From: Atractiella rhizophila
Lineage: Eukaryota
Direction: 5' to 3'
Length of the DNA: 53,512 nt
Assembly: GCA_021432655.1 (NCBI GenBank)
Contig: MU271389.1
Location: forward strand, 12,075-65,586
Both the position numbers and the translations under genes were made by a program. Below, piece after piece: positions 2,906-40,411 of this stretch. The notes beneath the pieces were generated by a model. That model searched no databases, was not told the DNA's origin, and was given only the letters and a program-made list of their open reading frames with translations. How positions within the stretch are numbered: the stretch's first letter is position 1; each line of letters opens with the position of its first letter.

Positions 2906-2952
2906 GTGTTGCCCCTTTCAGTGAAGTCTCGGCTGACAAGTTCATGGAATAG

Positions 2953-3440: not shown

Positions 3441-3541
3441 TAAGAGTAGTATTTGTGCATTACTTCGTACTGTGCCAATTAAATCTGTGTATACAACAGT
3501 CATAAGCACTATTTTTCGCTTCAGCCGCAAAGCACGCACAA

Positions 3542-4016: not shown

Positions 4017-4838
4017 GATATCAGTCTCTTGGAACTGTCGTGCTTTGGGTAGTTTGAAAATGCAGAAGGTGACCAGTTTCGGCTCCGAAAGGAATTGGTT
4101 TGGCGCGCCTTTGCCAATGTCGAGGCAGTTTCAATTGTTCACTTAGCCTTTGCGTTTCCATCAGAATGGGACCGTAGGAGAATGGGATGCTAGGTTCCAC
4201 GAAACCCTATAAGCAGCATAACGTATATAACGACAGATGCTTCAGAAGATATAAAGATGAAAGCTTAAATAGGTGCAATAAAAGCAGGAGCCTAGGCACT
4301 ATCGCGGTCCACCGTCTTTCTCATTCGAGAAAACATCCTTCATTGTCGGCGCTTTAGGAACAGGATGTTGCTCTTTTGAGAGCTCGTTTTGCTGGATCGT
4401 AATCAGACGTCCAACATCGTATACCATGGTACCTACAGGTTATAATAACGGTCAAGAAAGTCTCCCGAGCATCGCGAGAGACATGCCTATAGCCCAAGCA
4501 CCAAATCCAAGGGTCCCAAGGACCTAAAGTCGAGCAAGCATGAATTCAACAGGCATTTGTTGGAAAGAGTAATAAAACTCACAGCCAACTGCCTTCCGGT
4601 CCCCATTTCTGGGCTAAATGCATCAATATCTGAGGATCACGTTGCTTAAGAGACGCTCACGTCGGAAACCAGCGAAAAAGGACATCTTGTTCCAAAGCTG
4701 TAGGTGATGAGTAGTAACGATTGGCTGTGTTTGCGTGCCGGCACTTTTCGGTTGCATTAAACCCTCAAGGGGACAACACCGGACATTCTAACTTAACATC
4801 CACCACCCTCATTCCTCCACCACACATACTTCCTCAAA

Positions 4839-6988: not shown

Positions 6989-9662
6989 GTGGATGAAGTT
7001 TGGGTGGATTGAAAAGAGCAGTAGATGTAGGCTCCTGAATATTAATAAGATTCCTTTTTATCTCCCAATCCAGCAGTTCACCAAAGTTTGGAATGAGTCT
7101 TGAGTTTCATTGAGGAACAAGTTTCATTTTGGACCTCTTACCTCTTATTGGGACTTCCTGTTAAGATGTCCTCGTTCAAGCACAACACCCCTTTATTCCC
7201 AACCTCCCTTCTCGTTCGGAGAGACAAATTTCGAAGTGCAAACGGTGATGAAGAGTGCGAGTGCATGGTAAGGACCAATTGCGCCAATTCGTCAAGGTGA
7301 CGAATTGCGATAGGGATGAAAATGTAGGACAGGAAGGTGTTTCGAAGAGCACCCCTGATTGCGACACGAGGCATGCATAATACCTAACGAATTACTTTTG
7401 TCGATGTCGTCGAGGAGCACATGCGAGTTAACCGCGATTCCGCGTTGGAAGGATGTTCCATTTCCCACCGTTGCTTGCTCCCAGAATTTCCATAACGTTA
7501 ACTTTTCCAGGCAACCAAGGGTAGTTCCCTCACGATCACATAACGAAAGCTCTTCAAAGGGAACTAGTGTCTTTCTCGTACCGAAGAAAAGCGTTGTACT
7601 CAGTGCGTCCTCTACTGTCTTCTTTTTTGTCAGTACAAAACCTGACTGAATCCAACGAGGTGTGAAAGGTGTAAAAAGTTCCCATCTGCCAATCCCCTGT
7701 ACTGATCGTTACAATAATCATTATTGATAATCGGATTGATCACCATGCACTCCAAAACATCAACGATCGGGCAGCTAGATGGTCCATCACCGTTGTTTGA
7801 TCACTCTGGGGAAAGGGCAAAGTAATGTCTTTTTGACATTGTCAGTGCATCTCTGGGTTTGATACTCCGATGCCTTAATAGTCGACGACGTTTTCCTCTG
7901 CGCAACAGGGTACTTACTATCAGTGGCAGAAACAGACCATCACGGCTGTGATCGATTGAGCTGTCCGCTCCTTTGCTCAGCTGAAAAGGTTTGAAATGGC
8001 CCGAAAGAGAGGGATTCGAGGTTCAAAGCGTAAAAACATGCCATCAAATGAAGCGATAAGAAGAATGACGACTGAGCTTTTCTTTCATTTGATGTTCACG
8101 CGTTCACGTGCTGTTAAACTTCATATCGCCATATTATGTGAAAGGCTGGCTGTGAATAATAATCGGAAGAACACCATAATATCGATCTAGAAAGCGAAAT
8201 AAATTGCTACGCGCTGAAAACAGTCGCCCAACCTCAATGAGGCGATTACGATGCAATTGGCTCCTCTCCGAGCAGAAAACACTGACAACATTCAAAAAGG
8301 TCAGAGGTTTATCCACATTTTACTGCCCCAAGGACAAGGTCTCTTTCTTTCGTCCGATAGCTAGGAAACTCAAATGAAATGATAACTTTGCATAAACCAG
8401 CAAACCATGCATGAGCTAGTCGCATTGGCATTGGCGCTTACAACACACTTCTTCAAGACAGCTGTCAATAGATGAGAAGTGTAGAAGGACAAAGGGACGC
8501 AGCATCGGCACGTCAGGTATTCCCAGTTTGGCAGTTCCCCCGACGCAATGCCAGGCTGTATGTAGCTGGAGTTGGTTCCCTCATCCCATGATGAGGCATC
8601 CTTCGGAGCTCTTTGAGTCGTGATGCATCCATCTAAAGTAGGATGTTGGTTATAGAAGATTGCACAAAGATGAGCTATGCCCTGTTGAACACATTGAAAT
8701 ATCGGGGGGTGGGGTAACAAATTCCCTTTTCATAGGGACGAAGAAAAGGCTACTTGGCCGTTTGGTCGGACCCGATAGTGATGAGCTTAATAAGGTTTCT
8801 GCTACTTTGTGCGTTCCCTTTGAAGTCAACTTTGAGACAGACTCTGCGAAGCCTCTTTTTGAACGACGAGAAGCTAGTAGTTAGTTGCGGACTCCGCTCA
8901 AGCGAAAAAGGGGAGCCAGTCCCTCAGCAAGCTCTTGGTGCTCAGCAGAGTGACAAGGTTGAGGGTTGTGTTGAGTTGTTTGGCAGTGAGCACCACCTTC
9001 TCCTCAATCTGCTTCTTTCCATTCAACCAATCTTAATCTCGCGTATTCCCAGCCTATTCAGTTTCAGTCAGCATTCAGTGTTCAATCTCAGTCCGAGTTT
9101 GAGTTCAAGCACCCCTACTTAACCCTGCTCAGCCAGCTAACCAGCCGCCACTTCGCATTCACCTCCGTCCCAGCCAAGCTGCGACTTTCGCCCTGTTTGT
9201 CCTTTGCAAACAGTTGAATACTCTCCCGAGCTCACGCTACAAACAACGAACGAACGATTTGGACCTTCGACCGACCTTTTTTATTACCTTTTCAGCACAA
9301 CTACATCGATTTCACGATCTGGTCATCACTCTAGGCTATTTGTCTGCATATTTGTCGAGATTTATGCCCCAACCCGCACAAACTCATCAAATCCTATCGA
9401 CCATCTCGACCATCCCTTCTTCTTTTCCCTACTTATAAAGATATCTAAAGTCTCTTATTCTGCTTATCTTCCGTCTGGAAGCTTATTTCACTTTTCCTCT
9501 AAGTGCCATCCGTGTCATTCAACTGCTGACACCATTCGCGCTTCGAGGGGATCTCATTTCCTTATTTCCCTCGCTTTTCGTTCAAGCAAGGGTTTCGCCA
9601 CATCAAATCTTTTCTTTCAGCCTAAGCCTATCCGCCTCTCTCCTTCCAACCTACAAACCACT

Positions 9663-11591
9663 ATGGACTCTCCCCCGGCCGCACCTCCCACCCAGGCTCA
9701 CAGGGATCATGGACCGAGCCCATCTCCTCCATCTTCTGCAGGTCACTCCGGCTCCTCAGCTCGTCATTCCTTCTCTGCCGTCCTGAACCCAATGTCCGAC
9801 GCCCCGAACGGTACCGCCACATCCTCCTCGTCCTCAGCCCAACTCCCGTACAGGCCAGCTGGGGGTCCTCCGCATTCGAACGGATATCACGAAGAACCAG
9901 CACCGAAACGCCAGAAGCGCAATCGTCACAGTGGAGACGGGGACGAGTCACCTCCCTATCCGAGAGGACCGCCGTCGGGGTACGATCGCGACCGTCAATT
10001 CGTCCCCCCTCCTTATCCCGAAGCCGAAATGGGTGTGAGGAGGCGACCGTCGGTCCCTGTCATGCACGATGCTAACCCCAGTCCTCCTGGTCCATACGTC
10101 CCTTCTCACTCCCCTCGTCCAGCCGGAGGTGGATCTTACCCTCCTGGCGCGCCACCTATGCTTGGACCGCCTTATTATCCCCATCATATGCCTTACACTG
10201 CGGCCCCTCCTCCTCCCCCAGCTTCCGGATCCTCTTCTTCCCATCAATCCCATCACGGAACGCCCATGCGAGGGGTCGCACCTCAGCCTCTTCCTCCGTC
10301 ACATCCTCATGCCTTCCCTCCTTCAGCTCACATCCCGCCGCCCGCTCTTCCCCCGGCCTCTCTCAGGCGTCCGCCTCCGCAACAAGACATGGTGCTGCAA
10401 GACAGTTTCTTTGCCGAATCGCCATTGGACGAGGTGGTGAAGCATTTGGCGGATTGGATCTGGGAGGCGGTCAGGAAGTATGCAACTGGGAAGCATCCGA
10501 ATGCGCCAAAGCAGGAGGTGGAGATTGAAGCTAAGATCGGTAGGATCCTGGACAATAAGACTGGCACGAGATTAATGTTGCCCGTCGTGACAGAAACCAG
10601 TAAGTTCTTACCCTCTGATGAATGCGAAAGGCGAGAACTGACTACATGACAGTTTTGGCACCTGGTATGCCAGGTATTCGATTCGAGAGCATCATCCCTC
10701 CCGTGAGTTCTCTTGATTTTATACACCATATTATAACTCAACTCTTGCAACCCGGCGTTTAGGTTCAACACAGTCACTTCAACGATCTCTTGAACCAACG
10801 AATAGAGAAGGTGGCGTCCGAGATGAAGGGCACGCTGAGAGGATCGGTTTACGATTACGTCCAAACGAGAACCATAGACGAATTCTTTCCCTCCGGCCAG
10901 CGCGGTGTTAAGACGTAAGTGGTCCCTACTCCTTCAAGCTGACGCTCGACGTTTACTCCTGTGCATCCTTGGGTTACCGATATAGTCGCGTCTCGAGAGA
11001 CTATACCACGAATGCTATCATCGAGAATGGAGTCATGCAGAAAACCAAGTTGGGGGATCTGAACGTCTACTGTCCTAAGTACGAATACGACTGGAGGATC
11101 AGCGTGAACCTCGAAACCCAAGGTTCGTAACATCTCTGTCGTAAACTTAGGTGACTGATCTCCCTTTGTCATCCTAAATTGTAGTAAAGGATGTGCCTAC
11201 CGGACAACCATCCTATCGTAGGATCAAAGACCGTGTTTCGTACACACACCAGATTCATCGAATCGACCTTACCCAAGTTCAGAGTTCGGATCCTGTATGT
11301 TTCCAGCCTTTCTCGTAATTTACTCAAAGCTAATACCGACATCAGGCTGCCAATCCAACACATGAATTGGAGCTGGAAATGATCTCTATGCGCGAGTTCC
11401 TCTTGGAGGGAAGAAAACATGAAGCTGGCGTCTCCAGCTCTTATTTGGCCATGGTAGCCATTTTCCTTAACAACATTAGTAAGCCACTCTCTTCCCTGCC
11501 CGTCCCTTTTCTTGCCAATGTTGTATGCTGAGCATGTTTGACAGGAATTTTGCTTCGTTCATCGAAGGATTTCCCGTACCCTAGCAGGTAG
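9663..11591 (+). CDS. CET1: mRNA capping enzyme beta subunit (RNA 5'-triphosphatase, CYTH/TTM fold) with Pro-rich N-terminal extension
   Basis: Motif A EVEIEAKIG, LNVYCPKYEYDWRISVNLE, RIKDRVSYTHQIHRIDLTQV, motif C HELELE; multi-exon; ends NNIRILLRSSKDFPYPSR*. Confidence 0.92.
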
Positions 11592-19708: not shown

Positions 19709-21059
19709 GCTCGTTTTCGAGCTCGTTGTGTGTTTGATCAGGACGCCAAAGTTCTATCTGACCTCTCCATAGATATCGGTGAACCGAAGGCTGAAGGGAG
19801 ATCTGCCGATTCAGCCCTGTTGACGACAGTTTAACAATTTGAGGAGAATTTTGAACCTACGGGGTAATAAAACATGATACTATCCGCTGAGTAACTGAGC
19901 TTCAACTCAGCTTTCAGTTTGAGGAAATTTAGATTTGACAGAAATTGAAGCGTTTAGACGCAAACATTTCGCCTTTGCTTTCACGTTCAATCAACGTCCG
20001 CAAAACTCGTGCTTGATTGGCCCTACAATATTATCTGATATTGTTCAATGAGGTTGCACGCCTACGCCTCTTCCTGGCGGCTGGCGAGCTAGCCGACGCG
20101 ATCCAAACAATATACCCGCATTCTCGTAGCCGATTTTCGACAAACATGGAACAACTCCACGAAATGTTTGGTGGTTTGGATCGAGAATTCCTTGAGCAAG
20201 AGCAGAAAGACTTCCCTAATTGTTCCCAACAAACACGGACTGACATAAACGAATTCAACAATGTCCAGAGAGTGAGAAGAAGAAACTAGAGGATGACTAC
20301 ACGCCGTCTGACCTGTTCGACATGGAACTCTTTTAGAGTGCGAGTTGATACGAGCTGACGAGATAACTGGCGAGGAGGTTCGAAAAGATGGATAAGGCGC
20401 CGAGGAAGGGAGGATAGTGTTGTTTAATATGGCTTGGATGGCGAGTTTGACCTGTCAGTGTGGAGCCGTGTGTTCAATTTCCCCAGAATTCCTGTCCTAA
20501 ATTATGCAAGTTTGCGAAAGAAGGGATGTTGTTGCAGCTGTGAAAAGCCGGAGGAGGGATGTTTGCACCAACCCTCTTTGAAGGTCTTGATGCCATGGTC
20601 GACGATAGAGAACTGCAGCTTACTCTTTTCTTGCGACATGTCACCAAATAGTGGTGTATTTGAACGTTGTCAATACTAGACAGCAAAATTACGCTGCACA
20701 GCTCAGATCATTTGTTCTGGAGCAGCCATTATGCCACAATTTGTCGGAGCCTCTTTGTAAAGAAGTCGCTTTTTCTCCATCGTGATTCAAATCAGTTTAG
20801 CTCGTTGGCGATTTGTCACTTGAGGGTAGACCGAGAGAGCTCCTATAACATGGCTATCAGAAATGACAAAACATCATTTGCCTTTAAGTTATCGAGCGTT
20901 TAACTGTGAAAGAGATGTCGCTAGGCTCTTCCGGTGGACATAATGTTGAGGTCGAGGTCGAACGCTTTGGCGACCTTACCAGAGCGGAGTGACGGAGAGC
21001 TCAGGCGCGATAGGTTCAAGGAAACATCAATTTTACTGCTGTATATGAATGTCCATCGA

Positions 21060-21557
21060 CTATTGGCTAAGGTCGCTTCGTCGAGCTGACTCTTGTCTGA
21101 GTAAAGCTTTGGTGCGAGGAGAAAGGGGGTTAAGATCCGTTTCAATGCAAAATCACTTCTTCACCGTTATTTTCAACATCCTCCACCACTTGTTGGAACG
21201 ATTCTTTTGTCTTTTGCGCACGCAGGCCTCGATGGCCTCTCGCAAAGAACGTACATCCGCTTCCTCCAGCAGATATTGGTTTTCTCTGTTGATATCGGCA
21301 AGTTGCTGTTCAAATGTCTGAACCCTTTGGTCGAGGGCTTCCTTGATTGCGTGTCGAGCCGCTGTACATTCGCTGCAGGTGCAGTGGTAGGAAGAAGGAG
21401 GTGTTAGGGGTTGGGCAAGCGAATCGCAAAAAGGAATTGGGTGAGAACTGTCCGCTTGAATATCGTTGTCTCCTCCGACAATTAAGGAACTTGGAGGGGT
21501 GGGAGGACTCGGATTCTGGATGCTTTCTCTCTTCGTTGAGTATACAGCGCCATCCAT
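21060..21557 (-). pseudogene. Gene A copy 1: coiled-coil protein paralog of 31157-31603 with premature TGA
   Basis: ...KNRSNKWWRMLKITVKK*FCIETDLNPLSPRTKALLRQE...; TGA at 21153-21155 aligns with TGC (Cys) in copy 2. Confidence 0.7.
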
Positions 21558-22071
21558 ATGTTACTCGTGGTGGTTGGTGCTGGGGATAGAGGGGACGACC
21601 GCACCCTTTTGCGAGTAACGGCAAATATTGGAACGGTGCCGCTTGGTAGGTCAACTTGACTTAGTTTCTTCCTGGATCAGTTCACTTCGATTCGAGTGGC
21701 AGGAAGAGGAGCTTACAAGATGGAGGATGTGTTTGTGAAGGGACGAAGCAAACTTGAAGACCTTTAGAGTTGCTTGAAGATGCTGCCGAAGGAAACTGTG
21801 GACCGGCGCGAGCAGAAGCTCTGGGGACTTGGAGACTCCGAAGTCCAGCCCTGCCTCTTATAGGTTCTCTCATAGACTTCCCGCCTCCTTTCTCGTGAGA
21901 AACGGAGCAAGCTGGCGTGGGAACGGGAAACAAAACGGTATCAGACTTTATGGATATTGCAACGCCGATTTTCAACCTGTTATTCATTCTCAACCACTTT
22001 CGTCTGGCGCACATCAGTAATCAGACACCATCAGCCCTTTCTTTACTCAACGACGAACGGGATCCTCAGCT

Positions 22072-22895
22072 ATGACTTGCCCTTGCCTGCTGGAACACCT
22101 TCGTTTTCTTGAGTGGATTTTGGCAGGCGACGAGCGAGATGATCAGGAGGGAGCCTTAAGAGCACACCAAAGGAAGAAGGAGAGGATGCGCCCTCTGATG
22201 CGAAAATTAGGCCGCGAGAAAGCTATATACCACCGTAATCAAGTTACTCCTGAGAAGGTCTGGACCGAGAAAAGCGACGGCGGAGACGTGATATTGCTCA
22301 CGAAGTTCAGATCTGGAGAAGGTGAGGAGAGCTCTGCAGGGTTCAAGACTCAGCTAATATTTATCTAAGTCGTGGTTGATAACTCGCCGACTACCTTGTT
22401 GGAGGCAAGAAGCGGACCTAGTGAGGTGTTCCTCTCTATCATTGTTCGTCAGCTGAATCAACCCTTCCAGTGAATAACAAATCACGCCCCAGGATCCCCA
22501 AAATACTTGACTTCGACTTTGCAAGACGGTTGCATCTTCCTGTTTGGCTTGAATCGCTCCGCCAAAAAGGCAACCGAATCGAAGGTCGGGTGGATCGCTC
22601 GATTCACCAGCGGCGCGCTGGTCACCTTCACTAAATGGAGATTTGGCCAAGGTATGTGGAAAGTGACCGTATGGTCACGGGCTTACAGATTCTGTAGTGA
22701 CTTGGGAGAGCCATACCGAAGGCTACGTGTACGGCTGCGTCGAAACTGACGTTTACATGGCTGGTACGACCCTTAGTCTCAGTCCTTTTCGTTTAGCTGA
22801 CAGGGAAAGCAGCGCAGTATAGCCTCGAGGCCGGCAAGAATAAACATCTTTTCAGGAGACTTAGACTCTCCGACGGTATGATGAGCGCTCGATGA
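22072..22895 (+). pseudogene. Gene B copy 1: 5-exon hypothetical protein with +1 frameshift
   Basis: Same exon/intron layout as 29803-30630; extra G in GGTCGGGTGG (22588-22590) versus GGTCGCTGG in copy 2 breaks the EGRWIA frame. Confidence 0.72.
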
Positions 22896-23622
22896 GCGTT
22901 CGACCTCCAACGATCGCGGCTCCCCTTCGTATCGCGCTGCCGGAGTTTGCAGTCCTTAATGCCTGTAACCATTGCTTGTTTCGTTTACTTATCATCATGA
23001 TATCGTTCCATCAGCGTACGATTATTCCAATTTCGATTTCATCTGCTACTGCTCTTCTTTTTCCGTTCCCTTTGCTTCTTCCAGATCACTGTTTGCGACT
23101 GCTTCTACTTTTGTGGAGCATCGAAAAAGACTTGTCCTGTTCCACCGGTGGGACATTTCTTAGTGAAGGAAGTATCCTGCCAAGACGAAGCAACGGCACG
23201 GCTGGGTAATGTGTCGAAGAACATCTATGCATATTCGAGGAGCACAAAATGGTCGGGCGTCACAGAACATGATGTCGAGTAGGGGCAACAGAACAGACCC
23301 CTTCAATCAATCAAACAAGGGAGACATGGAAGCTCGCAGTCAAGTCCAACGAACGAAATTTGAAGGGAATGGGAGGCACTGGATATACCGGACGATTGAA
23401 AATCAACACCAGCCTGAATCACTGTTTCAATAAATTGAAGATGAAGGAGAGAATTATGGGATTATTAAAGCTCCTCTAAGAACAAACTGAAGCTCAAGAC
23501 GTAACTTAGATCGTTGAACATCCCGGGATACGGACGAAACCTGCTTTACTATCGTCAATCCTTTAATCTCGAGTGTGACAACGAGAGGGACAGAGACTTA
23601 CCCAACTATGTCAGCGCTGTGC

Positions 23623-26079
23623 TTAGAAGACATCTCTTTCTCCTCCACTCCTTCCTGGGGTAGCTTCTCTCTTGTTCTCCTCCGCCAACGCCGCGCTCCT
23701 TCCCCGCGAACTCTCCCCTCCACCAGTATAGATAGTTTGGTGATCCGGCGGTGTTCCAGCTTCCATAGTATCATCGATCCCCAACTGGTCCCTCATCCTC
23801 TGTAAGAGCTCTGGAACGAGAGTGTTTCCCTCTTCCACTGCTCCTCCTCCAACCCGAATTCCGAGTCCTGCACCAGGTACATAGTCATCTCCATCTTCGT
23901 CGTCGTCATCATTATTAGTAAAGACGTGCGTAGACAAATTCGAGTTCGACGGAACACGTTGATTTCCATTCACGCCAGTGGGCGGGATCGGGGATGTAGG
24001 AGAGCCATTGTCGAAAGTGACGGGGAAAATGGGAGCGACGCTCAAGCCTCCTGACGTCCCATTCCTCACACTTCCGGGCCGCGAGGCTCCTTCATTCCTG
24101 ATGCTCCCAGGCCTCGATCCCCGATTTCTACCCGTTATGGCGAAAGGCACAGAGTTTCCATTCGCGCCAGAGATAATGATAGAGGACCGTCTATTATCGA
24201 CTTCTTGATGGAATGCTTCTTCGTTGACGGGATCGATGGTGGGCATAGGAGGGATGGGGTGGCGAGGGAGCGGGTTGGATGTCGCCACAAGTGTTCCGGT
24301 GCCTGCTTCAGGGTCGAAGCTGGGCGACATCCCGCCATCTGGAGGGACTGAGGTGAGTGGACCGGCTTTATCGTCGTCATCTGTTGAGTGCTCTTCCTCT
24401 ACCGGTTCTGGGTCGATCTCTACGTCCGCGTCCAGGTTGGCAAAAGTCCGACAGAGGGGGACAGTTGAAGCCTGGATAATGGAGGTTGATCATTGGCCGT
24501 ATACACTATTTCCTAACTCAATCCATATTCCAATTGCAAAGGAGAGAAAGGGACCTTGAAATGTGTTGTATGACTGCAGGGTGCGATGAAGAGTGCTTGG
24601 CACACGGTGATGGGATATAAACCTTCACCCAGCGGAGCAAGGTTAAAACGAGGGAAGAAGGAATGGAGAAGACGAACAGATGCAGCAATCTGTCAGTTGT
24701 TCAGCTGGCTCGGCGGGTGCTGCCGCTTTCGAGGTTGCCGTCTTTGCAGGTGTGACCGAAAGGGCCCTCAGCTGCTTGAGTGCATTCGCACTATTCATCA
24801 GTGCTAATATCAGCATTTTAAACATTTAGAGAGAATGGAAACCATACTTGAAGGTATTGGGACCCTTTTGCCAATTCCTGCCAATCTCCACCCTAATCTT
24901 CACGCATCTATATTGCTCTTCCGTTCCTCCCTGGTAATCTACCCCAAGCTGGACCACATCCCCATCTCTCAAGCTGAATAATCTGCTCTCTAATCCCGGT
25001 CCACTCAGTCTAATATGATTGAGAAAAGTCCCAGAGCTAGAGCATGTATCCTTAATCTGGAACGTCACCCCTCCATCGGCGGCGGAAGAGATGAGGTGAA
25101 TCTCAGCGTGTGTGCGAGAAACGACTTTCGAGTGGAAGGCGACCTTTGTGGAAGTGAGGGCATCAGGACCTAACCCGCTATTTGGGTTGTTGGAATTTCG
25201 CTCTGTGAACCTGCCTATCTTCAAGCTAGAACCAGGGAGGAGTGCTCTCTCGATCGGCTCAAAGTGCAGGGAACGCGTAGACTCGAGGTGAGGCACGAGA
25301 CGGATGTGCGTCCGTTTGGGCGAATCCGCCCCGGATCCCGTGGAGGGACGATCACTCGTTTCCCCACTCCCGCTGTTGACGGTGGTGGAATGTTCGACTT
25401 GGGTGGTGGAGATTGCGGGGAGGGGAGAGAGGGAACCGTGTACTGCGGTGTGGGAGCGCTGATGGGTAGACGGCGTTCTTGGTGATGTCAATCTTGGAGA
25501 AGAAGTGGATGCCATGTCTGATTCGTTTGTGTTCGTTGTAGAGTTCGAGCTGTGATTAGGAGTTTGTTGCGCGGGTGGTTGAGAGGAAGATCGGCGCGCG
25601 CCCCTTCCGCTCGAGAATAGGTGATGGTGATGACCACTTGGAGAACCCGATCCGGCACCGATAGCAGAAGAATTATTCCTCTCACCCGAACCAGAACCAG
25701 AGCCTGATGCTTCTCCTGAGGCTTCTGCAATGTTTGAATGTCCACCAAAGCTCAATAGTCTCCTGCTTCCCTTTCTTCTCAGTCCAGGAAAATAGCTGCT
25801 CCGACCTTCTTCGGCGCCACCTGCCGTACCAACCGGCTGTGTGGAATTCGTTGGCGGTGAAGGCAGCGGGTCGTTAGACGCGGTCGTTGGCGATGGCGGG
25901 TTCCTGTCGTTCGCTTTGAGCGTGTTGCCCCTTGGACGACGTATGAGACCCCCAACGAGCGAGAGGGTGAATCTGTTAGAGTTAGGCGACGAGGGGCCGC
26001 CTGAGGCTGACAAGTTTGGAGAATTGGCTGAAGGGGAAGACGGTGGATTGGCAGGAGAAGTGGAAGTCGGTGATCCCAT
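23623..26079 (-). CDS. DMA1: FHA + RING-H2 E3 ubiquitin ligase, Dma1/Dma2 family
   Basis: FHA: LKIGRF..KVAFHSKVVSRTHAEI..IKDTCSSSGTFLN..GDVVQLGVDYQGG; RING: DCCIC..VCQALFIAPCSHTTHFK..PLCRTFANLDADVE. Confidence 0.93.
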
Positions 26080-26110
26080 CAGCCACGAGATTTATCGAAT
26101 CGTCGTTTCA

Positions 26111-26148
26111 AAGCCTGACTAACTCACAGCGTGATTAAGCCTGACTAA
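26111..26148. promoter_or_regulatory. 12-bp direct repeat AAGCCTGACTAA containing TGACTAA (AP-1/Yap-like) sites
   Basis: Copies at 26111-26122 and 26137-26148, in the divergent intergenic region between DMA1 and the Mid2-like gene. Confidence 0.35.
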
Positions 26149-26446
26149 GGTCCACTCACACCACGTGACCCATATCTGAAACGCTTCCGCTAAGGCTCAC
26201 TTTGGCTCAAACGACCATCTCCTTCAGGCGACTCGGAAGGCCTTCACGGGTTCAGTTCTCTCTCTCCAAGTGCGAACGACTCCACCACACTCTTTCCAAT
26301 CTCCCTCGTTTACCATACACAACCCACAAAAAATTACACAAACCCCTTATCCCCTTCCAGCCCACCGACTTCTCGCCCTCATTCGTTAGTTTACTCAATC
26401 ACGGTCATTCCAGAGATATAAGCGAACGAACGAACGAACGAAAAAG

Positions 26447-28944
26447 ATGGGAAAACACTCGCAAAATTACGGTTTCTTGGCCAGGAGGCAGCCTCAACCC
26501 ATCCCTCAAAGTCTCGCAGATCTGCTCTCTCCGGATGCGGCCGATGACAGCGGAAGCGGATCTACCAACAGTGAGTCCTTCGTTGACATTTTGTGGTATT
26601 TGGTCTTGGTGTTGCTATTATTATGGGTTGGGTGTCCTTTCGGTTATGCTGTGTGAGGCCGGTTTGGAGTTTCACTCCAGTTATCGAGCCGTATATATGT
26701 GTGTGATAATGAGGCTACCTCGAAGCCCTCATGTTTGATGTGAGGACGCTTGGGTAGTCCTGAAGCGAATGCAACCTGTGGAATGAGTGCCAAGTGCCAA
26801 ACTCCGCAAGCCTTTTTCAGCAATTCTGTTGCTGAGAGTGGAGTTGACACCTTTGGGAGGTGACTATCAAAGGACAATTTTCGAAAGCTTGGGTCCGTAC
26901 GTGCAAGGCATGACTGCTCAATTAGTCACTGTAATGGACGTCGACTTTTTCCTTTTAAACTGAAGCTGCTCGAGGTGAAAGTGACGCTGTGCCACGAACC
27001 ATCAGTGATCATTCTTCCCTCCGCGAAGCGAAGCGAACAAATCAACAGTTTTATTTCGGACATTGTTATTTTTTCGGTTCGCGGTAGCGGAGAGGTGATC
27101 TACAAGCTGAAACGAGTGCTTGGCATGAACGCCTTACGCTATGGCAATTCTCCCTCCATCTAAAATGGAGGAGTTGAAGCCATGAGTACTCACCAATGAA
27201 CGGATCGATATAGCAAACTCGAGAGCCAGCGCCGACGATTCAAGCTCAGGCGGACTACTTGACACTCTGGCGAATGGAGTCGCTAGTCTGGGTGGAGGAA
27301 ACAGCAATTCGGCAGCTGCTGCTGCTGCCGGGGATGATAATAGCAACGACGGTGGTCTGATTGGTGGCATCATAGGGGGTGGTGACACCACCAGTGGGAC
27401 CACAGGCGCCACGACGCAGGACACGGCAACACCTCCGACTGGCACCACACCATCTACGACCTCGAGTACCAGTTCGATCAGTCTCCCGAGCCCTAATGCC
27501 TCTGACTCGACGAGCACCACTGTGTCCACCAGCAGCGAGTCGTCGACTCAATCCACTACCAGTTCGTCCTCTACTCAGTCGTCGTCTACTACCTCTTCAA
27601 GGTCCGATAAGACGACCTCTACCCCCCCAGTGGTGCAGACTAGCACTCAGTTTGTGACGTCTAGCGGAACCACAAGCGGTGTGCTGGGCAGTCAAACTTC
27701 CGCTCCGGATTCGCATAGCAGCGGTGCGTTCTCTTTCTACGTCCTATCCCTTTTAAAATCGGCCTTTCTCACGCCTGATCCCTATAGGCCTTGGTACCGG
27801 TTCCATCATTGGTGCTGTCGCTGGAGTAATCGTCGGTCTTGTCGCCCTCTCTGCTATCGTCGCATACTTCTACAAGAAGAAGAACAAGGACTTCGACGAA
27901 CATGAAGACATCTTCAGGGACAACGGACACGATTGGGACCGTTCTGCTTTCAAGCGAGACTCCCAGCGTTTGGACGATGACGACCCATTCAACGGTTCCA
28001 ACTCTGGCGGTTCCCAGTACGGAGGACACAACAGGGACATGTCATATGCCAGCTCTGGAAGAGGACAAGGTGCCACGACACTCGCTAGAGCGAATACGGG
28101 AATGAGCAACTTTTCTTCTGGCAGCGGCAGAAGCATGGCTGCATACATGGGTGCCGGTAATCTCGCGAGGCAGAACACTACTCTCCCTGGTGCTCAACGT
28201 GGTCAAGGATTCGAAACCCCGAGACCTCCTTCCATGATCCATCGCCACGTCGTAAACAACAATGCGTTGGGACCGATGCCTTCTGTCAATTATGGGAACC
28301 AAGGAGGATACGGAGCGGCGAGGGGATATGGTGGAACCATGATGCAACAGCGCGGATTGGATAGGTCCAACACGGTCAATTCTCAGGGAAGCCAATACAG
28401 CGCTTATCAAGGTGGAATGGGAGGCGGATTCGGAAATCTCCAGAGAGAGAACAGCGTGTCTTCGAACTACAGCCAGCCTGCTCTGCCCCCTCTTGCCTTC
28501 GGTCGAACCTCCCCTACCCATGCGAATCCCTTCGCTGACAAACTCTCGATCCTCCACGAAGACGACAGTGAAGAAACTTTCTACGATCCTCAAGGTGGAT
28601 ACAGCTCTCGCAAAGGCTCTCCCATCAAGGAGAGGTTCCCGTCTCGCTCCGGAACCCCAGTCAATGCTAACCCTCAACAAGTTCACTATGGCATGGCTCG
28701 TGGTTCGGACAGCGCCTCCATCAACTACGTTGTCGCGGATCCCCAACATGATGGATACGAAGCCTCGATCCATGGTGGAAGCCAGAATGGCCACGCCGCG
28801 ACCGCGAGACATGGCGCCGGGTACGACTACGCTGGTGCGAAAGAGGACAGGGCCAAGAGGACTTTGAGCGTTAGGAATGGAGGGTTGGATGACGTCGACA
28901 AGCAAAGGCCCGTCAGCACTAGCGATGCATATGGAGGAATGTGA
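26447..28944 (+). CDS. Ser/Thr-rich single-pass membrane protein (Mid2/Wsc-like cell-surface sensor architecture)
   Basis: Exon 1 26447-26570, long intron 26571-27213, S/T-rich ectodomain, intron 27724-27787, TM SIIGAVAGVIVGLVALSAIVAYFY followed by KKKNK, Gly/Tyr-rich tail ending DAYGGM*. Confidence 0.72.
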
Positions 28945-29802
28945 GCTGTCCTCTAACGATGGATAAAGCTCTGCTTTGGTGGTCGGTTGTCGTTGCCGGT
29001 TTTATCGCTGCGTTCACGGTCTCAGATCTGTTCTCTCCCTCTACAGGACAGGGAAGAACCACTGTACAAATTGTTTCGATACAAAGAGTCTCGGTATCCC
29101 ATCTCTCTTGAATTTTTTGATCTAATTATTATCTTTCAACCTTCTGCCAACATGATATTCTCTTCGACCTTCAACTCGCCTGGAAATTATATTTCATTGT
29201 ATTTCTCAGGTGTCAGTGACACTTATCTCCCTCCCCTCCCCATACCCCTTCGACCCATTCCGTCTTTTTGCGTTTGATTTTCGCTGTTCACAAATATCGC
29301 TCCATTCGAAATATGCTCTCGCCTTTTTGATTGCATACCTCTCGAACCTGGCCTTTCCTTCCACGTCCAATATTCTCATGATATTGTGCTGCCGGTACTC
29401 TGATCAAATACATAGCAATGTCGACCTTATAAAATCTACCTACGTCCTCAGCACGCCCTTTGCTTCGTCTTATATGACTTCTTACCAGGGCTACTTGCTT
29501 CGCTAAGAAATGCTCACTCCGCGGCCAGCGTCTGCAACTTTTAGGAACAGTGAAGGCTTTTCGATGCTCTTTGATTCAGGAAAGTGAAGACAGTAGCAAA
29601 CAGTGACCTGAAAAAGCAAAGAAAACTAAAGAAAACAGGTAGCAAAGGAAATCGAAATTGAACGCAGCAGATATAATCATACGTTGTCGGAAAAGAAAAA
29701 ACCAGGATACTGATGATCTATGAGCTAGCAGTAAACATGGGCACCGCGATAAGAAGTGGGAAACGAGCAGCTGCGATCGTTAAACGTAGAGCGTGTTCAC
29801 GT

Positions 29803-30630
29803 TCACCATTGACTGTCTGAGAGTCTAAGTCTCCTGACAAGATGTTTATTTTTGCCGGCCTCAAACCCATACTGGCCTGCTAACCCTTATCACCTAAATG
29901 AAACTGGCTGAGATAAGGGTTGTACCAGCCATATAAACGTCGGTTTCGACACAGCCGTAGACGTAGCCTTCGGTATGGCTCTCCCAAGTCACTACAGAAT
30001 CTGTAAGCGCATGACGATAGAGTCACATTCCACGTACCCTGCCCAAATCTCCATTTGGTGAAGATGACCAGCGCGCCGTTGGTGAATGTAGCTATCCAGC
30101 GACCTTCGATTCGGTTGCCTTTTTGGCGGAGCGATTCAAGCCAAACAGGAAGATGCAACCGTCTTGCAAAGTCGAAATCAAGTATTTTGGGGATCCTGCG
30201 GCGTGATTTGTTATTCACTGGAAGGGTTGATTCAGCTGACGAACAATGCATAGAGAAGAACACCTCACTAGGTCCGCTTCTTGCCTCCAGCAAGGTAGTC
30301 GGCGAGTTGTCAATCACGACTTGGATATCAAGTTAGCTGGTTCTTGAGCCCGCAGAGGAACTCCTCACCTTCCCCAGATCTGAACTTCGTGAGCAATATG
30401 ACGTCTCCGTTGTCGCTTTTCTCTGTCCAGACCTTCTCAGGAGTAACTTGATTACGGTGATAGATAGCTTTCTCCCGGCCTAATTTTCGCATCAGAAGGC
30501 GCATCCTCTCCTTCTTCTTTTGTTGTGCTTTTAAGGCATCCTTCCTATCATCTTGCTCGTCGCCTGCTAAAATCCACTCAATAAAATTAAGGTGCGACAG
30601 CTGGCGTTGAAACTTGGTCCTTTCGGGCAT
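29803..30630 (-). CDS. Gene B copy 2 (intact): hypothetical ~210-aa protein, 5 exons, internal 24-aa repeat
   Basis: MPERTKFQRQLSHLNFIEWILAGDE...LLTKFRSGE|VVIDNSPTTLLEARSGP|MNNKSRRRIPKILDFDF...FTKWRFGQ|VTWESHTEGYVYGCVETDVYMA|GQYGFEAGKNKHLVRRLRLSDSQW*; four phase-1 GT-AG introns conserved with copy 1. Confidence 0.75.
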
Positions 30631-31156
30631 CTTAATCAGGTTTCAATTTCGAGCAAAGAAAAATGCGAGGAGCGTGAACAGAGAGCAATTGAAGACTGGG
30701 GTCGAGGCTGGGGTAATTATACAGTCTTACATAGTTTAAGACCAGTTGTCGTCCCGTTCCCGCTTTTCTCATGAAAAAGTGAAGCGGAAGCGGGAAGCAG
30801 CCCATATAAGGTGTCATCTCCTGATCATTTCCCAGTCTCCATAGCATGTTCGTGGACCTCGTACGTCTACTTCTCCCAAACGTCTCTCTCTCTCTTTCTT
30901 TAAGCATTGTCGGAGAAACTGTCGTCGAGCAGCAATCGAGGCTATAGATCCACTTCCTTCATCAAAGGTATTCCACGAGTAAGCTTCTCCCCCTCCTTCT
31001 GCAGACGAAATGCCAATGAACCTATACAGGGACGGATCGTTTACTTTTACCATCAGCCCGCACATTGGCTCCGTTCGTCTGTCCCCTTCTCTGGAGTACC
31101 CACCGGCTCATATGCTCATATAATGCTCTGTGTAGTCAAAGGATATAAACCATCGA

Positions 31157-31603
31157 ATGTCCAAGTCCTCTGACTCCGCCGCCAATTTCTTCGACAGGGG
31201 AAAGCATCGAGATTCAACGATATCATCTTCCTCGCCTCGTGGTGGGGACCGACTTTCCCTCCCGCCGACGCAATCCTTGCCGGATCTCCTCGAAACAAGT
31301 GAAGATGCGGCCGAAGTTAGGAAGATCGCCAAGGATAGGATCCAGAAACTGGAACGGAAACTGGTTGACGTCAAAAGAGAAAACGAACGTCTGAAGCGGG
31401 AAGCCAGTCAGCGATCTCTGCAACACGCCATCGTGGCCTGCGAACGGAAAAAGAAAAAGAATCGATCCAACAAGTGGTGGAGGATGTTGAAAATAACGGT
31501 GAAGAAGTGCTTTTGCATCGAAACAGATCTCAACCCTCTTTCTCCTCGCACCAAAGCTTTGCTCAGACAGGAGGCGGCAGAAAGAAAGAACCATAGCGAG
31601 TAA
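31157..31603 (+). CDS. Gene A copy 2 (intact): 148-aa coiled-coil protein with basic/aromatic KWWRML..CFC segment
   Basis: Open ORF; heptad region RIQKLERKLVDVKRENERLKREA; 3' part differs from copy 1 mainly at synonymous sites. Confidence 0.72.
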   Translation: MSKSSDSAANFFDRGKHRDSTISSSSPRGGDRLSLPPTQSLPDLLETSEDAAEVRKIAKDRIQKLERKLVDVKRENERLKREASQRSLQHAIVACERKKKKNRSNKWWRMLKITVKKCFCIETDLNPLSPRTKALLRQEAAERKNHSE

Positions 31604-32648
31604 TTGACGAGCATTCCTTTCCGCATGTAGTGCAAAATTGAAGTTTTGATTTCTTGGAATTCATGTGATTTACTTCTTGAAGCTTTCGCATCTGCGCTCC
31701 TGGCCACTCCGCTATTAACAACTCGAAAGCTATCACAACATTCTTAGCGGCATCTCTTTCGTAAGTAAACTCTCGGGAACCTAGAGACGAGTGGTGTTCT
31801 CATTTTTGAAAGGATATATCTTGCGACCACTCGGACTACTCTCAAGCGACACATTGCCAATGAGATGGACGTGACGCACAAGAGGAAAGGACACTTTGTT
31901 ACAAACACAAGTTGACAAAGCAGACAAACCGAACTGTGACAAGTCTGACCCAAGAGCTGCTCTGGAAAATCTGAGCTGAGCAGTGAGTTAGGGATCAAAG
32001 AGGATGCCTCTTGTATTGACAATGCTCAAATATAACACAATTTGACGCCGTAGCGACGTGAGGGCTCAGGGGAGCCAGAGTTAGACAACTACGCTGCAAC
32101 TCCCAAGGTCAAATTGCGCTTCTCTACCATTGACTGATCATTGTCATGGTGTGAAGAATTCAAAGGAACGATGCTGAACTCAAATTGTATTGAGCGTTAT
32201 TCAAGTGCTGGACCCAACGAAGGCAATTCCTCACCATGCAGGCCATATTACGACTCTCCCCCCTCCTCGCCACTCCTCATCGCTTTTAGTGCCTCTGTGT
32301 CAGGCAAACCCATAGTTCATCTCTAGTTTGGTTATCACTACGTAGTATAGCCACTTCTTCCCATGTAATTATTGGTGCCCACACGTAGCGATCAACAAGT
32401 AATGCTTTGACGTTCTTAACTCGTGTAGACTTCTGACGTTCGAGCAGTAGGCTGAGGCATTTGCTGCGATCCAGGTCTTACTGCGGCGTGAATGACTTTA
32501 GCTTGCTGCCTTAGGCGACGCTCCTCATCGTTCTGTTGCTGAACGTCATGCATTAACGATAGACATAATAACTCTGTCCTTTTCCACTTCATCAACCACG
32601 CTCTCCTCGTAGTCATAGAGTCCACTAGATACATAAATAACTTGAAGC

Positions 32649-34695: not shown

Positions 34696-36069
34696 CGAAA
34701 TACAAATAGAGCGGTTATCTCCTTATATCTGCCTAGGAACATCGCGAGGAAGTTGAGCAGACGTAAAGAGAGTCATTAGACTCGGAAACATATCATATTT
34801 AGTGTGAGAGAGAAGGTGTGATGGCTTTTATTTCATTTACAGGAGGGATGGTGACGCGTACTTTCGAGATGAGAGCGGGACCTAAGCCTTCTGCCGTGTT
34901 TAGTTGGCTTGTGCATAGCTATATCGTCCCGAAAAGGGCGAAATTGGATTAGTGATAAAAGTTACATAGGCCCATTCACATCGTATGCTGCCAATTTTGC
35001 CTTTGCTCCTTTTCAGAGAGCAGCCCTGCATCATACTAGCATCAGCCAATCTCGTTCTACATGCTATATGTGAAACGGCGGTTACAAGGATGTCATTCTT
35101 AACGGTCGTTGATGGGTTTATGGCATCCCTCTGTTCAAATCTGAGGTGGCCCACAAGTTGAAACTGCATCCCAACTTACAATGGAACCTTTTCTTTTATG
35201 GAGAAGCGGTTGTTAGACAATACGAACCATCAGAAGGTCCTGCAAGCTCGGTACTCAGTCTCAGCAATAGAACTGTTTGCAGTTTGAGTCGGGCTCCTAG
35301 ATAGAGCTACAAGTTGAACCATTGGCTACATCATTGGCATTGATGAGTTTCGCACAAATTGACGAATGTTTTCTTCTTTGATTTACACTCTCAATGGAGA
35401 CGGTGAGGATCTTGACAGCTGCTCTAGACGCAACTTCTAGAGGTAGGATAGTATCATATAAAGGGAAAGTATTGCAAAGCGAGAGTGAGAGTGGTTTGGA
35501 ATAGTCAACTCGATGTTATTTTCCCTCGACAGAGACCGGAAGGACTTATACCTCCATACCTCCATACTTCTTTATGTTTTAATGAATAATCTCCAAGGGA
35601 TACTGAGTCCATTGACAATGGTACATGTGATAGAGGTTAAACTCACATTCAAGTTCGGAATGTCACGTATGGGATGTGGAAAAGGGACTGGGCTTGCGCG
35701 GTTGTGTTGATGAGGAAGGCGGAAGAAAAGACGCTGTATGTTTGTTTGGGAAGAGTCTTCAATGACTTTCTTGGTCCTTCATTGAGGTTGCCTCGAAGAA
35801 GTTTGATGGAAGGGAACATCAAACAGCCAAGCAGACTCCTCAGTGGACTTGGAAGTCGGAGTGCGACGAGTGCGACACTCCTGTATTGTTCAAACTTCAG
35901 GGGCAATAAAAAGTATCAAACTCTGTCGGACTGTTAGTAGGCAATCATCGTTACCTCCAGCTCATGTACTGCGTACTTCATCATTCAACATTGTTCTTGA
36001 TTACGATGCCACAAGACAATGCGTCAGCATCGGTTGTCACTGCTTCTTCTCCTCGAATGACTTTAGGCA

Positions 36070-36755
36070 GCAGATCATCGAGATCATAGAAGGTTGTTTG
36101 AAAGCACATCAAAAGAAGCAGGAACAATGTGCCGTCTGATGCGAAAATTAGAGCGCTAGAAACTATCTGTCATCGCAATCAAGTTCCTCCAGAGAAGGTG
36201 TGGACCGAGAACAGCGACGACGGACACTTCAGATTACTCACAAAATCAGATCTGGGGACGGTGAGGAGAGCTCCTGCCAACATTGATACCCAAGTAACTC
36301 TCCCATCGCTGCACCTTGCTGGAGGCACGGAGAGCGGAGTTTCTCTGGACCGCCCTGCCATCCTGCTACCCCTGCTTGAGAATCAATCCTTTCAGTAACT
36401 AACAATCGCACTCCACGATCGCACAAATACTTGATTTCGACTTACTACTCAATTGCATCTTCCCATTTAGCTCGAATGGCTCCGCCAAAGGGGCAACCTA
36501 ATCGAACATCGCTGGATCGCGATTCACCAACGGTGCGCTGGTCATCTTCACCAAATGGAGATTTGGGCAGGATACGTAGAAAGTGACTGCATGTTGCCTT
36601 GAGAGAGTTATACCGAAGTTTAATCAGTTACCTCTACAGATGTGTCGAAACCGATGTTATAACTCTCAGTCAGGTTCTTTCAGCTGACATGGCAAAGTAG
36701 CGAGTACGGTTTGGAGGCCGGAAAGAATAAACATCTAATTAGGCGACTCAGGAAG
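36070..36755 (+). pseudogene. Gene B copy 3, heavily degenerate
   Basis: HRNQVPPEKVWTENSDDG, GTGAGG donor, TTCACCAACGGTGCGCTGGTCATCTTCACCAAATGGAGATTTGGGCAG, GAGGCCGGAAAGAATAAACATCT; multiple indels and stops. Confidence 0.85.
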
Positions 36756-37736: not shown

Positions 37737-40411
37737 TCATCGTCTTCCAGAAAACAAGTTCGATCCACCGACACTTCCCCAACCCAATGTACTCGAACCA
37801 GCGCCTGGCGTTTTCCCTCTCGGTCGATCGACCTTGACTGGACTAAGTATCGAAGGAATACCCAACGCGCCGCCAGTCTGTATCGCAAATCTGCAATGAG
37901 TAACCGATAGTGCAATAAGAAATATGAAACGTACGTCTTTTGAAGCGCTCCACAGGAAGTTGTTCGTCTTTCCTCCTAAAAGACGCATCTTCTTTCTCCC
38001 TGGCTCTTTCTTCCCCTCCGCTTCTTCCGCTTCGTCTACCATCTCACGCCGTTCTTTGCTCTTCTTAGGAGCTTGGACGGTTTCTTCCCCTTCTTCCTCC
38101 TCTTGCACAATCGACAGGTCCACAGTCTTGGATTTCGACGGTGGCTTGCTCGCAGCCCGCTTAGATCGCCCTGTCTTGCTCGTGACGGAGGTAGCTGACT
38201 CATCGTCTGAAGCGCGAGAGCGTTTCGTTTTAGCGGCATTTTTCGCCTTGGCTTTGGGAGCTGGAGCGGCTTCGTCTTCTGACGCATGACGGGACTTGCT
38301 CATACTCTTCTTCGAGCGTGCTGCAGGCTCTTCTGCTTCGGTTTCGGAAGCATCGGAAACAGGTCGAGACTTGGACTTGGACTTCTTGACCTTTTTCCCC
38401 AAAGGTTCCTCCTCTTCAACCTCCTCAAATGTGGACCGAGACTTTGTCTTCTTGCGGTTCCCTCGTGGCGCAGGCTCTTCCTCTTCTGTGTCCAAGGCGG
38501 TAGCAGGCTTCTTTTGCCTCCTGTTTGAAGAAGGGGATTCTGCCATCTCGACATCTTCGTTTTGTCCGTCGTCAGACACAGGATGGGACTTAGACTTTGT
38601 CGCCTTCTCAGGAACAGGCGTTGCTTCCTCCGCCTCTCGCTCGTCCTCCGAAACCGATTTGGAGGTAGATTTACCCTTCGCTTTCCGTTTCGCCTTCTTT
38701 GGAGGAGGGGAGTCGACATCCATCGGATCCTCCTCCTCATTGTGATCCACTTCGATTTCTGGCGGAGGATCGTCTTTGGTGATGGAAGAAGGGATGGAAG
38801 GCGGAAGGATTTGGGCATGATGATTCGCCTGCCGTTGAGCCTTTATCTGGCTCTTCAATATCGAGATCTGGCTCCTCGCTGCTCTCAGATCCACTTGGAC
38901 GCTTTCCAACTTGGACCTGATGGCGTCCTGTTCCTTTTTCGCCTCCTTCTTCATCTCCTTCTTCTCGCTCTCCAGGACCACCTTCTCCTCTTCCCACTCC
39001 TCCTTCTCTCCTTCCAATCTCTGCTTCTCTTCCTCCACCTCAGCGAGGGCAGCTTCACGCTCCTTCTTAAGCTTCGTTCGTTCCTTCTCCCACCCCTTCC
39101 TCTCCTTCTCCATAGCTTTCTCAGCTCGCTCCTGTTCTTCCCGTCGCACTTCTTCAAGTCGTCTATCCACCGCTTTTCCGGCGTAAGAATGGTCGCGGGC
39201 TTGGGTTTGAAGAGTGGCTATTTGCGATTCGAGGTCGTCATGGGATTGCTGCAATGCATCGTGCTGAGCTTTGAGGTTGTTAAGATGCTCGAGGTACGCG
39301 TTGGCGACCGTCTTGTGTTCGAGAGCTTGAGAAATTGACAACTCGTTCTGACTCTCTAGGTCATCGATTTGGGCTTCGAGCTCTTCCACGTGGGCCTAAT
39401 CAGTCCGCACAGAGCCATCATCAACTATTCCATCCGTATTTTATCTTGAAGAGAACGGGGAAGACGGACCTGCAACACCTCCAGACTATCCGCATTTCGC
39501 TCGCTACTCAACTCCGTCATCCTCCTCTCCTCATCCTTCATCCTGACCTCCCTCTCAAGCGCAGCAACCTCCATTTCCCAGTCCTCTTCCACCCCCTTCT
39601 CTTCCGCCTTCCTGGAGTTGAACTCCGCCAATATCCTCCTGCCGTACATCTTTGAAGACATAAGCCTGAGCTCGAGTCCCGCGATCTGAGTCTGCTGTCT
39701 CATGGACTGGCAATATAGCTCACGAAAGGCACGCATTAGCGCCTGCACTTGAGGTATGGCGGTGATGTCCCGATTGTCGACCTTAAGCGAATGTTGCGGC
39801 GTTCGTTTGGTTTGAGAAAGGACGGTAGGGGATTGTTTGACGCCTGGCTTCGCTGCAGGGGTTGTGGAGGCATAAGAAGAGACTCCAATGAGATTCTGCA
39901 GCCGTTTATTCTCCTCCCGAACTCGCTCAACCTCTTCAGTTCCCTTCTTCTGCTCCTCCCTCGCTGCCCATACCTGATCCTCCATGCTCCTGAGTCGCTT
40001 TTTCAACTCTTCAAGCTCTCCTTCTCCACCGACAGCGTGTCCCAGATTCTCCTTGTCAAAAGAAAATGATACCTCTTTTCTTCCCCCAAATCCTCCTCCA
40101 CTTCCACCTACAGTTCCAGCAACAGATCGCAAATTAACTCCCCATCGTGACGCAGCGCTCCCAACCGTCCCCAGACCTCCAATTCCAAGTCCAGCGGTAG
40201 GAGTGCTCATGGAATGCCTGAGCCTCTTGCTGGGGCCAACACTGGGTCCACCAAGAGCAATCCGGTCCTCATCGAACTCCAGAGGAGTTGGACGTTTGCG
40301 AGTGTTCTGCGAACTAAAGAAGGATACTGATGATTTGGAGGCTGGAAGTGGCGAAGGAATAGGGATTCGAGATGTTGGGAGCGGGCGAGAGACTGAGGAT
40401 GGGGCTGACAT
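37737..40411 (-). CDS. Long coiled-coil protein with Lys/Glu-rich disordered C-terminal half (function unknown)
   Basis: ORFs 39425-40447 and 37737-39389 joined by introns; E/K/R heptads; C-terminal GIPSILSPVK. Confidence 0.75.

Follow-up and report, generated by a model that had tools for sequence, protein, structure and literature searches.

One known kind of locus is the taxon-restricted gene pair with a shared bidirectional promoter, lying in a local inverted segmental duplication whose arms gene conversion has kept alike. The basidiomycete HD1/HD2 genes also form a divergent pair with a short shared upstream region, often with duplicated and partly decayed sub-loci, and encode homeodomain proteins of several hundred residues. 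In nematodes, peel-1/zeel-1 is a two-gene toxin-antidote element that was found by genetics, and peel-1 encodes a membrane protein. In wtf-type drivers a single gene yields both poison and antidote via two overlapping transcripts, with gene conversion between copies, and Spok proteins are large single-gene killers with nuclease and kinase domains. To our knowledge, no killer driver has been described in Pucciniomycotina. The killer meiotic drivers wtf and tdk1 are treated as single-gene systems in the portions of the literature consulted (PMC5478261, PMC10721834, PMC11551426), and the corresponding portion of one preprint version describes wtf products as multi-pass membrane proteins (PMC10721834). 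Here, we analysed a 53,512-nucleotide stretch of Atractiella rhizophila DNA (assembly GCA_021432655.1, contig MU271389.1, 12,075-65,586 of the forward strand; hereafter the window, to which all positions are relative) in which two small genes, designated A and B, lie head to head in each of two inverted arms. The locus is probably an old inverted segmental duplication of a taxon-restricted, co-regulated pair in birth-and-death turnover, and not a selfish or recognition module. Its parts are as follows:

21040..23127, plus strand: arm 1, firmly homologous part (repeat search, blastn, global alignment)
29558..31630, minus strand: arm 2 (repeat search, blastn)
23128..29557, no strand: spacer between the arms, 6.4 kb, with highly expressed genes (Pfam scans, RNA contigs)
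21153..21557, minus strand: gene A copy 1, 134 codons, ending at a TGA at 21153-21155 (alignment to copy 2)
31157..31603, plus strand: gene A copy 2 (P0001), 148 residues, intronless (uninterrupted open reading frame; letter-for-letter entry in a protein collection)
22072..22822, plus strand: gene B copy 1, read as copy 2, with an extra base at 22588-22590 that shifts the frame
29894..30630, minus strand: gene B copy 2 (P0002, BT69DRAFT_1320867), 196 residues, four exons (NCBI hypothetical protein; intron 1, 30320-30368, matched by an RNA joint)
36043..36751, plus strand: B copy 3, a decayed relic with no A beside it (blastn, tblastn)
21558..22071, no strand: intergenic region 1, 514 nucleotides, putative shared bidirectional promoter (layout; faint collinear similarity to region 2)
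30631..31156, no strand: intergenic region 2, 526 nucleotides (layout)

Similarly to orphan pairs with a bidirectional promoter, A and B were arranged head to head with about 0.5 kb between their starts and had no homologues outside the species; their products were short and poorly modelled or helix-rich, identity between the arms was patchy with one near-identical tract, and the extra copies were decaying. Among the features tested none distinguished the locus from such pairs, co-regulation being read here from layout. The locus shared lineage restriction and family turnover with decayed copies with wtf, tdk1 and Spok, as well as, probably, gene conversion between copies with wtf, but it comprised two genes rather than one. 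Unlike wtf, neither product had a hydrophobic segment (maximum 19-residue Kyte-Doolittle mean of 0.48 for A and 1.03 for B, below the usual 1.6 for a transmembrane segment), and by eye neither N-terminus looked like a signal peptide. Unlike Spok, A and B were only 148 and 196 residues long, and no Pfam kinase or nuclease was matched up to an expectation value (E) of 10. Tight linkage of a lineage-specific pair, with presence/absence or decayed copies, is shared with peel-1/zeel-1, but A and B were not membrane-like and the pair is known from its layout rather than from genetics. The likeness to HD1/HD2 lies in divergent transcription, a short shared upstream region and duplicated, partly decayed copies; in contrast, A and B were short and matched no homeodomain. 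Pfam found no homeodomain in the A protein (P0001) or in any of the three annotated B proteins (P0002, P0005, P0003) at E up to 1-10, nor any homeodomain or pheromone-receptor family among the scanned open reading frames of at least 110 residues in the window (16 and 44 scanned; 118 exist, the rest being mostly alternative frames that overlap identified genes). HET, NACHT/NB-ARC, HeLo and related Pfam domains were likewise absent from A, B and the other scanned frames of the arms, a search that idiomorphic het genes without domains would escape.

The inverted duplication itself was confirmed. A repeat search of the window returned six inverted repeat pairs between the arms (76-280 nucleotides, 78-99% identity), including 22085-22329/30361-30605 (245 nucleotides, 89%), 22440-22588/30100-30248 (149 nucleotides, 99%) and 21047-21326/31337-31616 (280 nucleotides, 78%). 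With blastn, 22085-23127 aligned to 30605-29558 at 82.7% over 1073 columns (E of 0), and 21047-21326 to 31616-31337 at 77.5%. The initial annotation had described A and B as divergent genes some 515-525 bp apart in both copies; the gap from ATG to ATG measured 514 nucleotides in copy 1 and 526 in copy 2. Its view that the two genes were duplicated together was upheld by the repeats, by blastn and by a faint collinear homology of the intergenic DNA. It had also drawn the cassette at 20645..32045: the outer ends were supported by a single 12-residue tblastx match in DNA of 45-59% global identity, and firm homology was bounded at about 21040/31630 on the A side and at 23127/29558 on the B side.

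Judged by their substitution patterns, A and B are genuine protein-coding genes under purifying selection, since synonymous changes far exceeded non-synonymous changes in the predicted frames. Between copies 1 and 2, the aligned exons of B carried 25.5 synonymous differences (Sd) over 123.7 synonymous sites and 28.5 non-synonymous differences (Nd) over 431.3 non-synonymous sites, giving a synonymous rate (dS) of 0.24, a non-synonymous rate (dN) of 0.069 and a dN/dS of 0.29 (Fisher p of 9e-6). Constraint was uneven along the protein, with a dN/dS of 0.48 in exon 1 and 0.04-0.19 in exons 2-4; the lowest value came from the first 27 aligned codons of exon 4, which held six synonymous differences and one non-synonymous difference. 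For A, the C-terminal 81 aligned codons gave a dS of 0.57 and a dN/dS of 0.32 (p of 5e-4), the tail formed by the last 49 codons gave 0.16 (p of 1e-4), and the N-terminal 58 aligned codons were saturated between copies. Read by eye, the alignment of the last 37 codons of A contained seven differences, six of them synonymous and the seventh a TGA in copy 1 (21153-21155) where copy 2 reads TGC. Homology continued in the same frame for 30 more codons past this TGA, up to a second stop at about 21060.

Expression was evaluated from the assembled contigs of one RNA run (X3), representing one condition, in which the joints of neighbouring genes corresponded to CT..AC or GT..AG introns. One contig skipped 30320-30368 (joint 30319>30369) at a depth of 12.7, which is exactly intron 1 of B copy 2. 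B copy 2 is thus spliced at intron 1 as predicted, at a very low level in this sample: depth over the arms was 0.4-9, compared to 700-9800 in most bins over the neighbouring genes. As A is intronless, its transcription could not be separated from background in the low-depth contigs. The soil and root metatranscriptome runs contained 5-7% of sampled words, and one of them (X4) yielded three contigs, none within the coding sequence of A or B. The initial annotation had considered copy 2 intact in both genes, and this agrees with the uninterrupted frame of 148 codons in A and with the annotated four-exon, 196-residue frame of B with its spliced first intron.

Both products were basic, with 35 lysine plus arginine against 21 aspartate plus glutamate residues in A and 34 against 24 in B, the gene for B having three short introns. 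The AlphaFold model of A showed no secondary structure over residues 1-47, where the predicted local distance difference test score (pLDDT) was about 55 (54-56 for residues 1-40), followed by a long helix at residues 48-101 (pLDDT of 94-98) and two short C-terminal helices. The basic C-terminal tail of A was conserved and the N-terminal third variable. Its structural neighbours in Atlas were generic long-helix proteins, and a TSC22 leucine zipper was rejected as an identity for A (E of 0.011; 16 bits against a cut-off of 30). For B, AlphaFold2 from the single sequence gave an unusable model (pLDDT of 40, predicted template modelling score of 0.24); the Atlas model reached a pLDDT of 0.54, and its best structural neighbour, YkuD, had a template modelling (TM) score of 0.42, which is not meaningful.

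A and B appear to be taxon-restricted, combining purifying selection in the predicted frame (p below 1e-3) with no relative outside the species. In a word-indexed search of 5.8 billion clustered proteins, A retrieved only itself (1 of 26 candidates) and B retrieved three A. rhizophila proteins (3 of 236 candidates), with nothing from outside the species. An exhaustive phmmer search of B against 1.84 billion representatives gave three matches: B itself, P0003 and an unrelated 1386-residue repeat protein (P0004), which we dismissed as a repeat artefact and not a relative of B (14 short matched stretches, E of 7.6e-11). These searches returned no homologues of either gene outside the species, linked or unlinked. 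In Pfam scans, run up to E of 10 for P0001, P0002 and two translations of B exon 1 and up to E of 1 for the other scanned frames of the arms, nothing attained the curated cut-offs; matches to a transposon or housekeeping family were absent for both A and B. The remark of the initial annotation that neither protein resembled a recognisable family thus held across Pfam, PDB, Atlas and phmmer, none of which gave a reliable family for A or B. Several leads were discarded. A DEP-domain match of B (DEPTOR, E of 0.18-0.4) and an APH match (E of 0.21-0.75) were both at chance level and at odds with each other; a TGF-beta receptor match of the unspliced exon 2-3 translation (E of 2) lay within the intron and was meaningless; and the single metagenome match to B that passed tblastn out of 179 pattern matches (L001, 1464-1634) was a chance occurrence of one short motif in a 1068-residue bacterial sensor protein. 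The locus-tag prefix BT69DRAFT was absent from a full-text literature search, and the genome papers found for the species were, in the portions covered, not on this locus.

The B copies differ in state, and their annotation is unsettled because the three database models, P0002, P0005 and P0003, are mutually inconsistent in the middle exons. In copy 1, a single extra base at 22588-22590 breaks the frame of copy 2, the start at 22072 falls 12 nucleotides later in the alignment, and intron 2 carries a one-nucleotide deletion relative to copy 2. The NCBI model P0005 (BT69DRAFT_1298748) nevertheless gives copy 1 as an unbroken 215-residue protein at 22072-23282, by using another acceptor and frame upstream of the extra base; it reads in another frame a region where the two copies are 99% identical, and its last exon (23118-23282) lies outside the duplication. 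The third model, P0003, is a 177-residue protein on a separate 11.5-kb contig. It shares its last 54 residues exactly with the copy 1 model and therefore most likely represents a second allele of that copy. These three, two on the present contig and one on the probable allelic contig, are the annotated B proteins of the species. The initial annotation had counted one lesion per gene in copy 1: a TGA in A and an extra base in B relative to copy 2 are indeed present in the assembly, but B is further altered in its start and intron 2, and P0005 renders it unbroken. Copy 3 had been called a decayed B without A, and so it was, with 68-70% identity to both other B copies, stops and frame changes in every frame (blastn, translations) and no tblastn match to A nearby. 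With tblastn the window held two copies of A and three of B, and nothing resembling A was found in it beyond the two copies. Immediately upstream of the B relic, at 35446-35636, the samples differed in structure: DNA contigs of runs X1 and X2 skipped 113 nucleotides (35522>35636) and had long ends hanging loose at 35446 and at 35595.

The two arms have diverged unevenly. Global alignment gave identities of 68-89% for the C-terminal part of A, 42-65% for its N-terminal part, 34-46% for the intergenic DNA and 76-98% for B including its introns. The best local match between the intergenic regions was not significant (score of 14, with shuffles reaching 16), whereas the global score of 25.5 exceeded all 200 shuffles (mean of -13, standard deviation of 8.8), pointing to a faint collinear homology, as would be expected if the two genes had been duplicated jointly long ago. 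The B side looked younger, with a dS of 0.24 compared to 0.57 for the C-terminal part of A, and contained the following tract:

22367..22595, no strand: probable gene-conversion tract, 230 alignment columns with 9 differences, spanning intron 2 (repeat search, shuffle test)

About 27 differences were expected in a tract of this size (95 of 799 columns differed overall), and a tract as extreme arose in only 1 of 5000 shuffles. Arm-to-arm gene conversion has probably homogenised the B side, a reading that we favour over protein-level constraint because the near-identical tract spans intron 2. P0003 pointed the same way: it differed from P0005 at 5 of 83 exon-1 residues and carried the copy-2 residue at three of the five. 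There was no signature like that of repeat-induced point mutation, as transitions and transversions were balanced (48:42 and 35:31) and GC content and the observed/expected CpG ratio matched the surroundings. The scanned arm frames contained no transposon-type Pfam domain (transposase, reverse transcriptase or integrase), and copies of the genes in the window were few.

The intergenic regions shared one exact word in a collinear position (21875-21925 compared to 30750-30790), the 10-mer GGGAACGGGA. A short palindrome-like block adjoins it in the alignment. A promoter element common to both regions could account for this, or chance.

Taken as an ordinary lineage-specific pair, A and B would be co-regulated by a bidirectional promoter, namely the stretch of about 520 nucleotides that separates their start codons, and would be expressed weakly or only at particular stages. 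Following duplication, neutral DNA (the intergenic region and the N-terminal part of A) would have diverged almost to saturation, and arm-to-arm gene conversion would have kept the B side similar. Copy 1, in which A has a premature stop and B an extra base, and copy 3, which consists of B only, may then show ordinary birth-and-death decay at different stages. Most likely, the pair is dispensable and lineage-specific, encoding small soluble, possibly nuclear proteins. If so, the locus offers a tidy case of lineage-specific gene birth, copying, likeness kept by conversion, and loss, with two small proteins of no known family under selection in a little-studied plant-root endophyte. It would be useful for annotation, given three database models of B that contradict each other, and not surprising.

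Several observations weigh against this explanation. Co-regulation and the bidirectional promoter are postulated from layout alone. The head-to-head spacing kept in two old copies, together with the death of the lone B, would also fit a functional dependence between A and B. Orphan status may be due in part to the small number of sequenced relatives of this fungus, and unannotated copies may exist elsewhere in the genome, as the count beyond the window came from annotated proteins alone. The RNA data, as contigs of a single run and condition, do not allow levels, strands or transcript ends to be derived; low-depth RNA contigs also covered intergenic 30467-31141, and part of the signal may be background. 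Finally, DNA contigs of X1 and X2 fell to about half depth over 30318-32120 (125-137 compared to about 300, and 81-94 compared to about 210), an interval that covers A of copy 2, the intergenic region and exon 1 of B, and in which these contigs differed by about 2% from the window. In DNA contigs of another sample, 21 of 1018 letters differed over 30467-31484, compared to 0-9 per 663-1093 letters in flanking pieces, few genomes being represented. Half depth together with a separate second-allele contig may reflect unusually divergent or absent alleles, which would be unexpected for an ordinary pair. Alternatively, the drop may be an effect of the contig graph, contig depth not being copy number.

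Of the competing explanations, the one that survives best, though we think it unlikely, is that the pairing is incidental: one gene would matter, probably B with its three copies and stronger constraint, and A would be a young by-product of a divergent promoter that was carried along. B does occur without A at copy 3, identity on the B side is 88%, while most of A and the intergenic DNA show 34-68%, two-thirds of A is low-confidence or single-helix as in many young genes, and the X3 contigs contained no spliced or strand-specific RNA for A. What speaks against it is the constraint on A itself (a dN/dS of 0.32 over the C-terminal 81 codons and 0.16 in the tail). Because its C-terminal part is under purifying selection, A is a maintained protein and not transcriptional noise.

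We consider it rather doubtful, more so than an incidental pairing, that B is a decayed remnant of a protein kinase, namely a catalytically dead C-lobe fragment, and hence not truly a new family. In the Atlas feature search, kinase-like clusters (Pkinase, RIO1, APH, Kdo) made up 10 of the 10 matches listed with a family, at scores of 0.76-0.78, but a third of shuffled proteins also obtained ten of ten matches within the same clan. A phmmer search of PDB aligned B residues 113-174 to the part of MET kinase from DFG to alphaF (E of 1.2-1.3), and by eye an HRD-like HRN (58-60) and a DFG-like DFD (118-120) can be picked out; however, Pkinase and related Pfam models gave nothing at E of 10, phmmer found no kinase among the 1.84 billion proteins, and a BLASTP comparison with the kinase C-lobe that the window encodes returned two tiny, non-collinear matches. 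Equally weak matches pointed elsewhere (DEP at E of 0.18, YkuD at a TM score of 0.42), and the AlphaFold model of B (pLDDT of 40) was unusable. Without a significant collinear profile match, the kinase identity of B was rejected as unproven.

A more consequential but very unlikely alternative is that A and B work together as the two components of a selfish or recognition module (toxin with antidote, killer meiotic driver or allorecognition pair), whose products act on each other and whose linkage is selected for co-inheritance. Head-to-head linkage and spacing (514 and 526 nucleotides) were retained in two old copies, the lone B copy is dead, both proteins are orphans and their N-termini evolve fast, with saturation in the N-terminal part of A and a dN/dS of 0.48 in B exon 1, compared to 0.04-0.19 in the other B exons. 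Vegetative expression is low, and there are hints of divergent or missing alleles in the half depth over 30318-32120 and the second-allele contig. None of this is peculiar to such a module, however, and depth in contigs does not measure copy number. Selection on the conserved cores is of the plain purifying kind and not diversifying, membrane segments like those of wtf are lacking, and Pfam matched no nuclease, kinase, HET, NACHT, NLR or homeodomain. Furthermore, the fungal killer drivers wtf and tdk1 are single genes as far as the consulted portions of their descriptions go, and for any two neighbouring orphan genes such a role is improbable a priori. In a still less probable form, A and B would be halves of a Pucciniomycotina two-gene module, selfish or self/non-self, of an undescribed kind, with one product harmful or signalling and the other its linked partner; such a module would explain the kept pairing, the dead lone B, the fast N-termini and possibly the divergent or hemizygous alleles. 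The locus would matter much more than as an ordinary pair if its products turned out to be a poison with its antidote, or partners in recognition.

Least probable of all is the reading of A and B as mere annotation artefacts, or as pseudogenes long dead, in duplicated non-coding DNA: the very low RNA depth, the disagreement of the three B models in exon structure and the lack of homologues would fit, but this was largely refuted by the excess of synonymous changes in the predicted frames of A and B (six to one in the first 27 aligned codons of B exon 4, dN/dS of 0.04) and by an RNA contig from which intron 1 of B copy 2 is removed precisely at the modelled boundaries. Expression, in other words, was not absent, as B copy 2 is transcribed and spliced, weakly.

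The surroundings of the pair are of housekeeping character, as the initial annotation had stated and as Pfam scans of the neighbours bore out: genes of the spacer and flanks encode an FHA-domain protein, protein disulfide isomerase, mRNA triphosphatase, TANGO2, ATP synthase subunits and tubulin, among others. A single FHA-domain gene (24826-26091) lies in the spacer, and the genes of the window have short GT..AG introns. At 26570-27214, an RNA contig joint spans 643 nucleotides (GT..AG), which is unusually long compared to the introns of 49-73 nucleotides in neighbouring genes. On the minus strand at 37737-39395, a 552-codon open reading frame with an extreme AT skew of -0.32 has strong internal repeats at the protein level (tblastx self-matches at 38000-38700); it had no reliable Pfam family and apparently encodes a low-complexity repeat protein.

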